Source: Myxococcota bacterium
GTDB lineage: Bacteria > Myxococcota_A > UBA9160 > UBA6930
Direction of reading: 5' to 3'
Assembly (NCBI GenBank): GCA_965223705.1
Contig: OZ245015.1
Location: forward strand, 1,696,001 to 1,760,000
DNA: 64,000 bases
Both the position numbers and the translations under genes were made by a program. Within the stretch, counting starts at the first letter, position 1; each line of letters starts with the position of its first letter. Shown here in pieces: positions 58,148 to 63,496 of this stretch. The notes under the pieces are model-generated. The model made no database searches and was not told where the DNA came from. It was given only the letters and a program-made list of their open reading frames with translations.

Positions 58148-58243
58148 GGCTAGCGACCGCGTCCGGTCGGACGCGCCGACCCGGTCGGTTGCCGCCGAGT
58201 CATCTCCTGCGCTGTAATGGGTCCTCCACAAAAGGAGGGAGCC

Positions 58244-58783
58244 ATGCCGAAGCTCGCGGATTCTGAGCGCGACGCGTTTCTCGCGGAGCCCGGAACCATC
58301 ATGAACATCGCGACCGTCGACGCCGACGGTGCGCCGCTCGTTACCCCCATCTGGTACATCCACGAGGAAGGCCGCATCTGGTTCACGCCGCGGCAGCATT
58401 CCGAGTGGTTGAAACACATTCGGAATGACGCGCGGGTCGCGCTGTCGATCGACGAAACGGCGATTCCGTACCGGAAGGTGGTCGTGCGCGGTCGGGCGAC
58501 GGTCGACCACGAAGTCGGCAACGACGACGCTTGGCGCGACCGCTATCGCCGTATCGCCGAGCGCTATATCCCGAAAGACGACGCCAACGCCTACGTCGAC
58601 GGCACCGACGATCAACCGCGCGCCCTGTGCTCGGTCACGTTGTCGGACGCGGAAGTGCGAACTTGGCGAATGCCCGTCGACGACGAGCCCTACAACGGCA
58701 TCTGGGCCAAGCGCTACTGGACGGACAACGCGAAAGTGAATCAGCAAGCGCCGACGCTCTTCGACGAGAGCGTCAAGAAATAG
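58244..58783 (+). CDS. Pyridoxamine 5'-phosphate oxidase-like split-barrel protein
   Basis: IATVDADGAPLVTPIWY, DARVALSID; AAGGAGG SD. Confidence 0.85.
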   Translation: MPKLADSERDAFLAEPGTIMNIATVDADGAPLVTPIWYIHEEGRIWFTPRQHSEWLKHIRNDARVALSIDETAIPYRKVVVRGRATVDHEVGNDDAWRDRYRRIAERYIPKDDANAYVDGTDDQPRALCSVTLSDAEVRTWRMPVDDEPYNGIWAKRYWTDNAKVNQQAPTLFDESVKK

Positions 58784-59677
58784 GTGTCGACGACGTACAC
58801 CCTGATCCACTTCACCGAGGGTTTCGACGCCGCAGGCGTTGTCGGCTTCGCGCAACGCGTCGAGTCGTTGGGTTACGAAGGGCTGTGGATTCCGGAGCTT
58901 TCGGGGCGCGAGCCGATGGGCCTCGCGGGTTACTTGTTGGCGCGCACCACAGGCCTCAAGATCGGGATCGGAATCGCGAACGTGTACGTGCGCGATTTCG
59001 TCGCGGCGGCGCAAGCGCGGCAAACGCTCGCCGAGTTGTCCGGCGGCCGGTTTTGGCTCGGGCTCGGCGTATCCCACCCCTTGTTGGTCGAACCCCGGGG
59101 CCACACGTTCCGCCCGCCGACGAAGGCACTCGGCGATTACTTGCGCGGGATCCACGCGACGAAACCCGATGGGCCCGCTCCGAGTGAGCCGGCGCCGATC
59201 ATCTGCGCGGCGCACGGCCCCAGGCTCCTGGAAATCGCCCGCGACCTCGCCGACGGTGCCCTGTGCCTGAATCAACCGGCGGAGCACACGGCGCGGGCTC
59301 GGGAGATCCTCGGACCGGGGAAGCGCCTGGCCGTCGTCGTGCGGACCTGCATGGTCTCGGACGCGAGCCACGCCCGCGCCCTGGCGCGCCACGCGCTCAA
59401 TTTCTACGTCACGCTCCCCGCGTATCACCGAACCTGGAAGCAGGCCGGCTTCTCGGAGGCGGATTTCAGCGACGGGGGTAGCGATCGGCTCGTGGACGCG
59501 ATCTTCGCCTGGGGTGATGAATCCGCGATTCGGAAGCGAATTCAGGCCCATATCGACGCAGGGGCTGACGAGATCTGTCTCTACCCCGTGAATCCCCACG
59601 AGGAGCTGTCACCGGGCCAGGTGGGGGGATTAGAGCCCGACTGGGGGGTCTTGGAGGCCCTCTCACCAAAAAGCTAG
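58784..59677 (+). CDS. LLM-class, probably F420-dependent, oxidoreductase
   Basis: LWIPE..GREP, GIANVYVRD, GRFWLGLGVSH, AAHGPR. Confidence 0.88.
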   Translation: MSTTYTLIHFTEGFDAAGVVGFAQRVESLGYEGLWIPELSGREPMGLAGYLLARTTGLKIGIGIANVYVRDFVAAAQARQTLAELSGGRFWLGLGVSHPLLVEPRGHTFRPPTKALGDYLRGIHATKPDGPAPSEPAPIICAAHGPRLLEIARDLADGALCLNQPAEHTARAREILGPGKRLAVVVRTCMVSDASHARALARHALNFYVTLPAYHRTWKQAGFSEADFSDGGSDRLVDAIFAWGDESAIRKRIQAHIDAGADEICLYPVNPHEELSPGQVGGLEPDWGVLEALSPKS

Positions 59678-59728
59678 GCCGTGATCTGAAGTCCGCTCCG
59701 TTCCGACTCTCTCGTAGAAAGCGAGGGA

Positions 59729-59911
59729 GTGATGATCGGACAACCCGCACGAAGCCAGGAAACCCGCAGCACGCTTCTCGAACTCGTCGGCCGTTTGTTG
59801 GATCAGGGGGCCAGCGAAGAGGACGTCGTCGCACGGGCTCGCGAACTCATTCTGAGCGGGCAGCACGTGCTCACGGGGAATTTCCGCGGCGCGGTCGAGA
59901 GCTTTCGCTAG
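59729..59911 (+). CDS. Small hypothetical protein (60 aa)
   Basis: GAGGGAG SD; helical TLLELV..EDVVA..LTGNFRG; fills a gap between genes. Confidence 0.6.
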   Translation: MMIGQPARSQETRSTLLELVGRLLDQGASEEDVVARARELILSGQHVLTGNFRGAVESFR

Positions 59912-60411
59912 AAGTCGCCCCGCTTGATCGCATCGAACAACTTGCGCACGTCGTCGTTGCACTCGATGAGTTCCATGATCGCGCCGCACGCTGCTTCCGT
60001 GTCGTAGTACGCAAAGCGCGTGCTCGCTCCGAACGTGCCGGACTGGGCCACCTCGTAGCCGTTCGCGGCGTACGTCGCGGCCGCGCCATCGAAATCGTCG
60101 ACCAGAAAACCCAGATGATGGAGACCGGGCCCGCGGGCTTCGAGAAATTCCTGGTAGAGCGACGACCCGCTCAAGGGTTGTATGACTTCGAACTGTGTAT
60201 CGCCGGCGTAGGCCAGAGATAGATCGATCCGAAAATCCGCGGGTTGGCCCCGATAGGTCAAATCGTCGAAGCGGATGTCTTCGAATACGCGGAAACGGCC
60301 GGTGCCCATGTGATCGTGCAAGAAGCGCTGGGTGGATTCGAGATCATTCGTCACGAAGCAGATCTGATGGATTGTTTCGCCGATTCCAGCGATCGGGGTG
60401 GGGGTGGGCAT
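59908..60411 (-). CDS. VOC family protein (methylmalonyl-CoA epimerase-like)
   Basis: HQICFVT, QFEVIQP, GLHHLGF, FAYYDT, ELIE. Confidence 0.85.
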   Translation of the reverse strand: MPTPTPIAGIGETIHQICFVTNDLESTQRFLHDHMGTGRFRVFEDIRFDDLTYRGQPADFRIDLSLAYAGDTQFEVIQPLSGSSLYQEFLEARGPGLHHLGFLVDDFDGAAATYAANGYEVAQSGTFGASTRFAYYDTEAACGAIMELIECNDDVRKLFDAIKRGDF

Positions 60412-60415
60412 TGTC

Positions 60416-61180
60416 TCAGCGTCCTTTCCATTCGGGTTCGCGTTTCTCGGCGAAGGCACGGGCACCTTCGCGGGCGTCCTCCGTGTCTTGTAGCTCGAGG
60501 TAGAGCTTGCGCTCGAGACGAAGCGCGTCGGGCAACGGTCGATCCAGGCCTTCGGTCACCGCCCGCTTGATCGACTGGACCGCCAGGGGAGCGCTCTTCT
60601 CGATCTCACCCGCAATGGCCAGCGCCCGCTCGAGGTGTCCGTTCTTCGGTACGAGGTGGTCGATGAGACCCAATCGAAGCGCTTCTTCCGCACCGATACG
60701 AGAGCCCGTGATCAGCATTTCGAGCGCGCGACCGCGCGGGATGAGTCGCGGTAGGCGTTGGGTGCCCCCCGCGCCCGGAAGCCAACCGAGTCGGACTTCT
60801 CCGAGACCGAACTGCGAGTGCTCCGCCGCGACGCGGATGTCGCATGCCAGGGCTTGCTCGAGGCCGCCGCCGTTCGCGTGTCCGTTGATCGCGGCGATCA
60901 GGGGCTTTTCGAGCTCGTGCATGAGGGGGAACAATTCGCTCTGCGGTTCGGGCTCGTCCTCCCGTTGCACGTAGTTGGACTTGATGTCACTTCCGGCGCT
61001 GAACGCGCGGTCCCCGATCCCGGTGAGGATGCCGACGCGCAACGTCGGATCGTCGCGAAACTCCCGCCAGATGGCTGTCAGCCGTTCGTACGTCTCGAAA
61101 TCGCAAGCATTGAGCCGTTCCGGCCGGTTGATGGTGACGATGGCGATGCCGCCGCGACGCTCGAAAAGGACCTTGTCCAT
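60416..61180 (-). CDS. Enoyl-CoA hydratase/isomerase family
   Basis: INRPERLNA, AFSAGSD, GGGLE, GEVRLG..GGTQRLPR. Confidence 0.92.
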   Translation of the reverse strand: MDKVLFERRGGIAIVTINRPERLNACDFETYERLTAIWREFRDDPTLRVGILTGIGDRAFSAGSDIKSNYVQREDEPEPQSELFPLMHELEKPLIAAINGHANGGGLEQALACDIRVAAEHSQFGLGEVRLGWLPGAGGTQRLPRLIPRGRALEMLITGSRIGAEEALRLGLIDHLVPKNGHLERALAIAGEIEKSAPLAVQSIKRAVTEGLDRPLPDALRLERKLYLELQDTEDAREGARAFAEKREPEWKGR

Positions 61181-61266: not shown

Positions 61267-62328
61267 GTGGCCCAGCCGAGTGCACTCTCTTCCAAGCGGC
61301 ACACCGTGGCCGGTTGGCACGAAGTCCAGGAGCTCTTCCATGCCGAGGGCCTGAGTGACGGCCTGCCCGTCGTGCCCCCGACGCCGGACGCCGTTGCCGC
61401 TTGCCTCGAAGCGGTTCTCCTCCCGCCCGATCATTTGGTGGGCATCGAGCCGGTTCGCGCTCGCCCGGTGACGGCGGAGAAGCTCGCGATAAACGCCGTC
61501 ATGGCCGGCTGTTTGCCGGCGCACTTCGCGGTCGTGGTCGCCGCGATGACCGCCATGCTGCATGAGGGGTTCCTGTTGCACGGCGCGACGGCGAGCACCG
61601 GCGGGTGTGCGGTGCTCATCGTCGTGAACGGCCCCATCCGCCTCGAGCTCGGAATGGACGGCACGTTCAACGCGCTGGGCCCGACCGATCGCGCCAGCAT
61701 GTGCATCGGGCGCGCGATCCGCCTCGCGCTCTACAACGTTCTCGACGTACGCCCGGGCCAAATCGATCGCTCGACCCTCGGTCACCCGGGAAAGATCAGC
61801 TACTGCCTGGCAGAAGATGAGGACAACTCTCCTTGGCCGTCGCTTGCAGTCGATCGCGACATTCCGAACGACGTCTCGGCGGTGACGGTCATGGCCGCTG
61901 GCGCGCCGCGTCAGATCATGAACGAGTGGACGACCCGACCCGAGGAGATCCTCGATACGTACGTCTCCGAGATCCAGGCGAACATGCGGCATTATTCGAT
62001 CTGGTCGGGGAACTACGCATTGATCATGCCGCCCCAGCTACGGGCACACGTCTCCGCCGTGGGCTGGTCGAAAGCCGACGTGCGCCGCTACGTCTTCGAG
62101 AACGCACGCGTGTTTCGCCGAGAGTGGGCGGAGTGCGGGAAAGCAGCGGTCGTCGGCGATCGTGGAGATCGCGAGCACGCCGCACTATCCGAGGAGGGCG
62201 ACTTGCTGGTGATCGCCGCCGGCGGGCCGGCGGGGGGCTTCGGGGCGGTGATTCCTCCTTGGCTCGGAACGACCAGCCGGGCGCAAACGGTGGCGATCGG
62301 GGCGTGCGTCGATTGCGAGGTTCCGTGA
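61267..62328 (+). CDS. UGSC-associated conserved protein with C-terminal CxxC
   Basis: DGLPVVPPT, INAVMAGC, VVNGP, IGRAIRL, TLGHPGK; ends GACVDC; GTGA overlap with next gene. Confidence 0.8.
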   Translation: MAQPSALSSKRHTVAGWHEVQELFHAEGLSDGLPVVPPTPDAVAACLEAVLLPPDHLVGIEPVRARPVTAEKLAINAVMAGCLPAHFAVVVAAMTAMLHEGFLLHGATASTGGCAVLIVVNGPIRLELGMDGTFNALGPTDRASMCIGRAIRLALYNVLDVRPGQIDRSTLGHPGKISYCLAEDEDNSPWPSLAVDRDIPNDVSAVTVMAAGAPRQIMNEWTTRPEEILDTYVSEIQANMRHYSIWSGNYALIMPPQLRAHVSAVGWSKADVRRYVFENARVFRREWAECGKAAVVGDRGDREHAALSEEGDLLVIAAGGPAGGFGAVIPPWLGTTSRAQTVAIGACVDCEVP

Positions 62329-62852
62329 CCATCGAAGTGCTGGATCCCACCTACGAGCACGGCGGCGCGCGCTTCGCCCTGGCGCCGCGCCTCCCGACGC
62401 TGGCCGGCACGACGATCGCGTTCGTTTCGAACGGCAAAAAGAACACGCAACCGTTCTTCGACGCACTCGAGCGCGAGCTGCGCGATCGCTACGGCGTCTC
62501 CCGCGTCGTTCGACGCACGAAGGCGAACTACAGCGCGCCCGCGGAGGCTGAAGTGCTAACTGACGCCGGCCAGTGGCACGCGCTGATCGCGGGCGTGGGC
62601 GATTGAGGCAGCTGCTCGTCGTGCAGTCTGCACGACGCGGTCACAGGGGAAGGCTTGGGCCTCCCCTCCGTGGGCATCATGACCGAATCGTTCGTCAGCG
62701 CTGCACAACTCATGGCGCGAGCGCTCGGCGCACCGGACTACCGATTCGCGGTGATCGATCATCCGCTGAGTAGTGCGGGCGCCGCCGAGATCGCCGAGCG
62801 CGCCGCGCACGCGGCGGCCGTTGGCGACGCCATATTGCGGGGCCTGCGTTAG
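62325..62852 (+). CDS. UGSC-family selenoprotein (Sec at codon 94, TGA 62604-62606)
   Basis: Two same-frame ORF-track pieces are joined by a single TGA: VGD-U-GSCSSCSLHD..GLPSVGIMTESF..HPLSS; a hairpin follows the TGA. Confidence 0.85.
62617..62637 (+). promoter_or_regulatory. Bacterial SECIS-like hairpin
   Basis: CGTCGTGCA-GTC-TGCACGACG; 9-bp stem starts 10 nt after the UGA and the loop begins with G. Confidence 0.7.
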
Positions 62853-62887
62853 GGTTCCGGCTTGCAATTCAAACGGAGGCGGCCACC

Positions 62888-63496
62888 ATGCTCACCCTTC
62901 ACCACGCGCCGAACAGTCGAGCGGGGCGAATCGTTTGGCTTCTAGAAGAACTCGGCTTGCCCTACGAGCTGAACCGGATGGAGTTCCACCCGAGCGCGCT
63001 CAAGTCCGATGAGCACCGCGCGCGGCACCCACTCGGGCGCGTGCCCGTGCTGGAAGACGGGGACGTCACGATCTACGAGTCGGGTGCGATCGTCGAGTAC
63101 TTGGTGGCGCGGCACAGTGACGGTGCGCTCAAGCCCCCGGTTGACTCGCCGCTCTATCCCGAGTTTCTGCAGTGGTTCCACTACTGCGAGGGGATGGTGA
63201 TGCCCCCGATCAACACGATCGTCGTGCAGACCATTCTGCTCCCTCCCGAACGACGCAACGCGGAAGCTTTGGGGCAAGCCCAGCGGTTGCTCAGCAAGGC
63301 CATCGCGCCCGTCGACCACGCGCTCGAGGGGCGGGACTACGTGATCGGCGATTTCTCGGCCGCCGACATCATGTTGGGCCACGCGTGTTTCATGGCGAAC
63401 CGGTTGGGTTGTGTCGGAGACGAGATGAAAAACCTGAAGAGCTACATCGCTCGCCTCGAGAGCCGCCCCGCGTTCCAAAAAGGCATTGCTGCCTAG
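62888..63496 (+). CDS. Glutathione S-transferase family protein
   Basis: SRAGRIVWLLEELG, PLGRVPVL, ESGAI, FSAADI; GGAGG SD. Confidence 0.92.
   Translation: MLTLHHAPNSRAGRIVWLLEELGLPYELNRMEFHPSALKSDEHRARHPLGRVPVLEDGDVTIYESGAIVEYLVARHSDGALKPPVDSPLYPEFLQWFHYCEGMVMPPINTIVVQTILLPPERRNAEALGQAQRLLSKAIAPVDHALEGRDYVIGDFSAADIMLGHACFMANRLGCVGDEMKNLKSYIARLESRPAFQKGIAA

Follow-up and report, generated by a model that had tools for sequence, protein, structure and literature searches.

A UGSC-family selenoprotein and its companion in a Myxococcota genome: a candidate two-subunit reductase with kinship to protein B of glycine and proline reductases

A 64,000-nucleotide stretch of a Myxococcota bacterium genome (GTDB lineage Bacteria; Myxococcota_A; UBA9160; UBA6930), comprising positions 1,696,001 to 1,760,000 on the forward strand of contig OZ245015.1 in assembly GCA_965223705.1 and called the window here, carries near its end a reading frame that runs into a single TGA and then continues in frame. 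The locus raises the question whether this TGA encodes selenocysteine (Sec) and what the resulting protein does together with the gene just upstream. The read-through product belongs to the UGSC family, which ranked fifth in abundance among the selenoprotein families of the Global Ocean Sampling survey with 255 sequences (PMC2398784); from 2007 (PMC1976440) to 2026 (PMC13188914), UGSC is entered as a selenoprotein with no assigned function.

Judged from sequence, the TGA is a Sec codon and the read-through protein a real selenoprotein of a known family. Slightly short of an even chance, in our estimate, the UGSC protein and its upstream partner form a two-subunit, thioredoxin-recycled reductase, in which the selenolate would cleave a bond in a small organic acid.

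The in-frame TGA and its hairpin

The core of the locus consists of the following features, given with their positions in the window.

61267..62328, + strand: partner protein, 353 amino acids, matching no Pfam or NCBIfam family; it corresponds to the 'Unknown_1' domain (Zhang and Gladyshev 2008)
62325..62328, + strand: GTGA start/stop overlap of the partner and UGSC genes, suggestive of translational coupling
62325..62852, + strand: UGSC-family selenoprotein, 175 amino acids, with U94-G-S-C97-S-S-C100 and a predicted flavodoxin-like fold
62604..62606, + strand: in-frame TGA, putative Sec codon (residue 94), from TGA conservation and Cys homologues
62617..62637, + strand: bacterial Sec insertion sequence (SECIS) hairpin, 9 bp with a GUC loop, from geometry and codon conservation

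The UGSC frame opens with GTG 62325, meets its only TGA at 62604-62606 and proceeds through GSCSSCSLHD to a TAG ending at 62852; both the list of open reading frames (ORFs) and the databases split this gene in two. The partner terminates in CVDCEVP, which places a CxxC three residues short of its end. Frame, ORF split and product length agree with a first-pass annotation made from the letters of the window, and the same holds for the gene layout it described, with the GTGA overlap, the CVDC ending and a glutathione S-transferase (GST) gene starting 35 bp downstream. A promoter scan of the locus found none.

The hairpin consists of nine Watson–Crick pairs (62617-62625/62629-62637), starts 10 nt past the UGA and places its loop 19 nt from it. 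According to PMC13188914, bacterial SECIS elements have a loop of 3-9 nt, a stem of 4-16 bp, a G in the first two loop positions, a spacing of 16-37 nt and a folding energy below -7.5 kcal/mol. With these limits applied by hand and by script, the hairpin lies within all of them. When 20,000 random TGA triplets per strand were sampled on contig C1, a perfect stem of at least 9 bp in SECIS geometry followed by chance in 0.13% and 0.16% of cases. A point against the hairpin is its folding energy, which is ordinary in windows of 44-100 nt (z -0.5 to -1.2 relative to shuffles), with z -2.8 only in a 31-nt window picked around the stem.

For comparison we used the 80 best among 566 confirmed loci with close relatives of the partner (the close loci), 16 plasmid loci read from 24 matched records, and 41 kin genomes. 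The UGSC codon is TGA in 79/79 close loci from several phyla, and each of the 33 UGSC matches in kin genomes, spread over 29 of the 41, contains one TGA; full-length homologues with Cys at the Sec position exist as well. Codon choice within the hairpin is fixed in the 79 loci, with Ser AGT and Leu YTG in all 79 and Ser TCG in 74; outside the hairpin, the corresponding shares in these genes are 13%, 48% and 23%. A set of 45 sequences, picked from 115 for variety, had 86.9% of its stem cells paired, compared with 7-46% for slid stems, and 22 of the 45 kept the outermost pair. Covariation was weak, as expected because the stem is also coding: two pairs had changed on both sides, which 391 of 500 shuffles equalled, and the covariation score was equalled by 29 of 500.

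The genome, which is 95% complete, contains selA, selB and selD above their cut-offs as well as tRNA-Sec. Furthermore, selA was found in 5/5 sampled source genomes of close loci and in 38 of the 41 kin. One sample, which may be the source sample, provided contigs from four runs, and these had no alternative letter at the TGA. The first-pass annotation had read the hairpin as a SECIS element, had pointed out that Sec machinery would have to exist elsewhere in the genome, and had named Cys or TGA in homologues and a sequencing error as the matters to look into; the hairpin geometry, the complete set of selABD and tRNA-Sec, the homologues and the contigs of the four runs all bear this assignment out. 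In the same four runs, 30-41 nt around the UGA and SECIS (window 62598-62638) stood at roughly five times the contig depth of their flanks, and this exact sequence is likely common to other organisms in the sample. One run's contig had one base fewer at window 61229, in the gap ahead of the partner start.

A true stop or an error at the TGA would leave two small genes or a pseudogene. This would fit the split entries in the databases and the ORF list, and read-through is a prediction from sequence. Against it stand the TGA in 79/79 loci, Cys elsewhere, the fixed SECIS codons, the full Sec machinery and a predicted compact domain that spans the TGA (pLDDT 94), and we consider such a stop or error extremely improbable.

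The UGSC protein and its near-obligate companion

The UGSC protein matched Pfam PF24696 over its whole length with 162.5 bits (cut-off 25). With this match, the U94-G-S-C97 motif and the SECIS element it has the hallmarks of the UGSC family of Zhang and Gladyshev, to which it had been assigned in the first pass. Its fold was modelled differently here. The model (pLDDT 94) forms one compact domain across the TGA, a five-stranded flavodoxin-like sandwich in which U94 opens the helix that follows strand 3. Structure matches were generic, i.e., flavodoxin-like, receiver and periplasmic-binding domains (best Z 10.6, root-mean-square deviation (rmsd) 3.2, 123 aligned residues), 'flavodoxin-like' being our own reading of these outputs; no thioredoxin was among the matches listed. 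The predicted fold is flavodoxin-like, against the thioredoxin-like fold guessed in 2008 (PMC2398784). PDB sequence searches with both proteins, both profiles and a PrdB-like profile gave no relative, and the ESM Atlas returned no usable match for a Cys-type UGSC query once PF24696 was skipped, a result with no bearing on the GrdB link discussed below.

Two further UGSC–partner pairs exist in this genome. One (C1:321361-322946, - strand) has the reverse order with UGSC first and the motif UGGCTTGT. In the other (C1:2904784-2906884, + strand) the partner carries a fused N-terminal thioredoxin-like domain with CPTC, whose redoxin match is sub-threshold; the UGSC gene of this third copy changes frame near residue 45 (C1:2906498-2906511), as an assembly indel or a broken gene. 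A tree was built from 34 selected UGSC domains. The three kinds present in this genome and its kin fall in separate groups, and the window copy groups with those of Proteobacteria and Acidimicrobiia (100/99); because branches are long, no inference on transfer was drawn from the tree.

The partner is a near-obligate companion of UGSC, from an uncatalogued family with no clear solved relative. The UGSC gene lies downstream of the partner gene in 79 of the 80 close loci, the single miss being a contig end, and the spacing is at most 60 nt in 73 of the 79 pairs. Both genes occur in the same 29 of the 41 kin genomes and neither in the same 12; in 8/28 positive relatives the two are not adjacent. 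Each of the three UGSC copies in this genome has a partner. Fusion is common, too: among 150 partner representatives, 32 include a UGSC part, which may stand on either side and is doubtful in one case. A weak search for longer UGSC fusions gave 2 among 8,000 candidates. A UGSC domain is present in 15/16 plasmid loci. The tie between the two genes that the first-pass annotation had proposed is upheld by adjacency in 79/80 loci and by a common presence pattern in 41 genomes. This linkage, fusion and co-occurrence make it likely that UGSC and partner act together, possibly in physical contact.

A UGSC/Unknown_1 fusion is already in print in Figure S1A of PMC2398784, described there as occasional and in few organisms; the segment AVNGVMAGC...NGP of that figure corresponds to about residues 74-135 of the partner. 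In contrast to this occasional fusion, the partner appears here as a near-obligate companion from a very large uncatalogued family (7,803 of 8,000 scored candidates; 4,398 clusters at 50% identity). In the ESM Atlas it matched unnamed clusters only, a result of low recognition value. Its conserved residues are DGLP (31-34), C82, T111, R149, K176, C180 and E183, of which C82 and C180 are the family-wide cysteines (102/106 each). The predicted structure (pLDDT 95.6) has a chorismate-mutase-like C-terminal domain in structure comparison, and no chain among 48,161 reached Z >=8.

The terminal C347-x-x-C350 is subfamily-specific, with 116 of 119 close homologues having it as opposed to 4 of 71 distant representatives of 300-400 amino acids. 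The first-pass annotation had proposed a selenol/thiol relay between the UxxCxxC motif and this partner CxxC. A plain thiol relay is still a rival; homology to GrdB and PrdB points to a catalytic selenolate.

Several variations of this architecture were seen. The partner domain is duplicated in one 700-residue chain in P0147 and P0149, and by length also in P0158, P0167, P0201 and P0254, and haloarchaeal plasmids hold partner–UGSC–partner triplets; both suggest a partner dimer. Met or Ile replaces Sec in cysteine-less UGSC–partner fusions (Sporomusa L278, Vibrio L288, P0225), and the Sporomusa and Vibrio plasmid fusions adjoin aconitase X and DUF126. A small CxxC domain without a Pfam match is fused to Cys-type UGSC or to the partner (P0131 C-terminus, P0156 N-terminus), and we take it to be NifU-like by its look.

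Kinship with protein B and the proposed reaction

HHalign matched the UGSC profile to the Sec-bearing part of 102 different GrdB-family sequences at 96.6% (E 7e-10, score 65). Controls comprised shuffled, reversed and masked profiles and other families: 30 column shuffles scored at most 18, and 91% was retained with a seven-residue motif masked, which is the same short motif by which the GrdB-family sequences had been fetched. Against 33 PrdB-like sequences the value was 68.6% (28.8% in a smaller comparison), and seven other neighbour families gave at most 0.6%. Six of the fetched GrdB-family sequences were checked; NCBIfam named all of them protein-B family, and four gave weak matches to the UGSC model (E 4.6e-5 to 0.01), the match at E 4.6e-5 being a GrdB above the TIGR01917 cut-off. 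The UGSC protein itself did not match PF07355 or TIGR01918, and the list of families recorded in 115 UGSC members did not include PF07355.

With the protein B selenoproteins of glycine, sarcosine and betaine reductase (GrdB, GrdF, GrdH; TIGR01917, TIGR01918) and of D-proline reductase (PrdB; TIGR04483, Pfam PF07355), the UGSC protein has in common a homologous Sec region in which Sec falls on Sec, the UxxCxxC motif, also given for GrdB in PMC13188914, and the elements E-x-x-G-x-P and H-P-L; the proposed two-protein design and dithiol recycling are further common points. It differs by its size, 175 amino acids compared with about 435 in GrdB and about 240 in PrdB, and by its setting, for it accompanies catabolic operons of Proteobacteria, Actinomycetota and haloarchaea and not Stickland clusters. 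The UGSC protein probably works like protein B of glycine and proline reductases while itself standing outside that family. In these reductases the selenolate attacks an activated carbon to give a selenoether, which a thiol cleaves to leave an Se–S bond (PMC10298544), and transcriptomics has tied a GrdB homologue to fluoroacetate C–F cleavage (PMC10838667).

In this genome, GrdA and GrdE/PrdA were not found; control genomes likewise gave no match. Four PrdB-like genes with an in-frame TGA do exist there (L118-L121; C1:2137630, 2849232, 3212799 and 150128), one of them with U-P-L-D and no second Cys and all without PrdA/GrdE found in the same genome. PrdB-like TGA genes are common in kin (27/41).

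Fusions and operons provide clues to the reductant. A Pfam scan of 19 long partner representatives picked for this purpose gave two fusions with redoxin/AhpC-TSA, two with the ferredoxin-thioredoxin reductase (FTR) catalytic chain and one with a piece of pyridine nucleotide-disulphide oxidoreductase. In 3/16 plasmid loci, trxB lies within the same gene run, and two further ones contain an unnamed flavin adenine dinucleotide-dependent oxidoreductase of about 305 amino acids. The gene order is trxB–trxA–partner–UGSC in Arthrobacter sp. ERGS1:01 and partner–UGSC–trxB in Roseovarius sp. THAF8. The partner CxxC tail, present in 78/79 close loci, may act as a shuttle, because the close loci devoid of thioredoxin genes are those with the tail; in the window's subfamily this suggests that the tail passes on the reductant.

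Neighbouring genes hint at the substrate. Coenzyme A (CoA)-transferase III was seen in 21 of the 80 close loci, in 10 cases on the same strand and no more than 110 nt away; its 25 ORFs compare with about 6 expected. Other neighbours there are short-chain dehydrogenases/reductases (18), enoyl-CoA hydratase (11) and acyl-CoA dehydrogenase (8). The plasmid loci feature TRAP/TTT/TAXI transporters (7/16) and CoA-transferases (5/16). CoA-transferases and transporters as neighbours therefore indicate organic acids as the substrate class, with none named. Thiodiglycolate was considered as a candidate; a literature search on its reductive C–S cleavage gave nothing relevant among the matches listed, and it was not adopted.

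For the pair as a two-subunit reductase, we propose the following course. SelB acting on the SECIS element would recode UGA 62604 as Sec, for which machinery, hairpin and conservation are all observed. The UGSC protein and its partner would work as a unit, with the partner binding the substrate. By homology to GrdB/PrdB, the U94 selenolate at the helix start might attack a small organic acid at an activated carbon, displace a heteroatom group there (N, S, O or halide) and form a selenoether. C97, perhaps with the aid of C100, would then break the Se–C bond and yield the reduced product and an Se–S bond, as proposed for proline reductase. Judging from fusions and operons, thioredoxin and thioredoxin reductase would re-reduce the Se–S bond, in the window's subfamily likely via the flexible C347xxC350 tail of the partner. 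A carboxylic acid is the likely substrate, in many cases as a CoA thioester that would replace the pyruvoyl Schiff base of GrdE/PrdA; this is the weakest step and draws on neighbours only.

Several observations weigh against this course. On NCBIfam NF041046, its only family match there, the UGSC protein scores 112.8 bits (E 1.3e-32), below the cut-off of 125; the other two copies in the genome reach 106.8, below, and 134.3, above. Homology to GrdB spans only about 90 residues in the second half of the UGSC protein, and the window's own protein scores 5.2 bits on the GrdB profile, so that profiles carry the link. The partner does not resemble the pyruvoyl proprotein GrdE/PrdA (PF09338), with no Pfam match and a profile that stayed silent on the ORFs of 120 GrdB loci, and substrate activation is therefore left unexplained. 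Model confidence is low in its tail (pLDDT 44-79). U/C and both cysteines have been lost from some fused UGSC domains (P0225; Vibrio and Sporomusa plasmid copies), from which it follows that a selenol is not essential to every family member; this counts against all readings built on a selenol. Close loci contain trxA/trxB in 0/80 cases; neighbours vary widely, with no single gene in more than 21/80 loci, the kin genomes are not independent and the neighbour background was taken from this genome alone.

The same redox setting would also suit a thioredoxin-dependent oxidoreductase acting on a heteroatom bond (S–S, S–O, S–N or N–O), in which the selenolate attacks S or O and not carbon, as in MsrA or peroxiredoxins. 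UxxC at a helix start and the Trx, TrxB and FTR fusions and neighbours agree with such an enzyme, as do sulfur-related genes in two plasmid loci (phosphosulfolactate synthase in one; cysteine desulfurase, TusA and DsrE in the other) and the fact that no pyruvoyl-type activator is known for the pair. The flavodoxin-like fold, nearest characterised relatives that cleave C–N bonds, and recurrent CoA-transferases and acid transporters speak for attack on carbon instead, and we regard the heteroatom-bond enzyme as unlikely.

A different chemistry is raised by the partner fold. The alpha chain of class I fumarate hydratase (7xky_A) was its top Foldseek match and the sole one spanning both partner domains (E 2.5e-4, TM 0.30; Z 5.6, rmsd 5.6, 188 residues), a weak topological likeness over partner residues 85-347 with a chorismate-mutase-like C-terminal subdomain. 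The pair might accordingly be read as an iron–sulfur hydro-lyase or lyase like this two-subunit enzyme, with C82/C180 and/or U94/C97/C100 holding a cluster that activates a carboxylic acid. The third Cys, i.e., the CxxCxxC spacing, is kept in 109 of 115 TGA-type sequences, and aconitase X lies beside 2/16 plasmid copies, both with a cysteine-less UGSC domain. However, the likeness to 7xky_A is within the range of chance arrangements, as no chain of the 48,161 reached Z >=8; identity is 8-11% with no sequence match, and the partner has only two family-wide cysteines. The third Cys is lost in the other 6/115 TGA-type sequences and in Cys-type fusions, and a hydro-lyase needs no thioredoxin system, yet such systems are fused or adjacent. 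An iron–sulfur lyase is in our view distinctly improbable.

Returning to the selenolate reductase, we may speculate further that GrdB-type selenium chemistry has a second, widely distributed branch beyond the Stickland fermenters, represented by UGSC and partner. Here a minimal protein-B active site would be docked on a substrate-binding subunit of new fold, without pyruvoyl cofactor or GrdA/GrdC, and would use thioredoxin for the reductive removal of substituents (N-, S-, O- or halide) carried by organic acids in CoA-activated form. We hold this extension as tentative, with roughly one chance in three of being correct. In the literature searched, which included few subscription journals, we found no paper linking UGSC to GrdB/PrdB and none treating Unknown_1 as an obligate subunit. 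The window locus is an ordinary UGSC-family member, and the pairing is already partly in print as the fusion. A fixed partner, a revised fold prediction, bond-cleaving relatives and a named electron donor turn UGSC into an assayable enzyme, and Cys-type operons in the cultured, harmless strains Arthrobacter sp. ERGS1:01, Roseovarius sp. THAF8 and Halalkalicoccus jeotgali do away with the need for Sec expression.

The GST gene and other neighbours

Two genes directly flank the pair in the window.

62888..63496, + strand: glutathione S-transferase, 202 amino acids, Pfam GST, with its own GGAGG site; no conserved part of the module
60416..61180, - strand: enoyl-CoA hydratase, divergent; the family lies near the module in 11/80 loci and is no fixed part

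The first-pass annotation had coupled the relay to the GST and proposed electrophile or metalloid processing. The GST starts at 62888 on the same strand, 35 bp past the UGSC stop, a consensus scan of the + strand found no terminator in between, and the two genes are possibly co-transcribed in this genome. The neighbourhood survey placed this coupling at chance level. In flanks searched up to 6 kb, with at least 700 nt available downstream of UGSC in 71 of 79 loci, a GST occurred in 1/80 close loci (28% identity, about 3 kb off), compared with about 1.6 expected from the GST density of this genome; the plasmid loci had one in 1/16, on the opposite strand, and no GST matched beside the other two UGSC copies of this genome. 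Arsenic, mercury or tellurite genes were not seen among the recurring neighbours of the module, so that the metalloid and electrophile part finds no resistance context either. The GST is likely an incidental local neighbour and no module component, and a GST-coupled relay appears very improbable.

Farther upstream, window 58217-60465 contains genes for an F420-type PPOX protein, an LLM oxidoreductase (TIGR03620, above cut-off) and a VOC-family protein, which are absent from the top neighbour clusters of the module. On a Neorhizobium plasmid (L289), a frame-split UGSC–partner fusion stands directly behind genes for malonyl-CoA decarboxylase and malonyl-CoA synthase.

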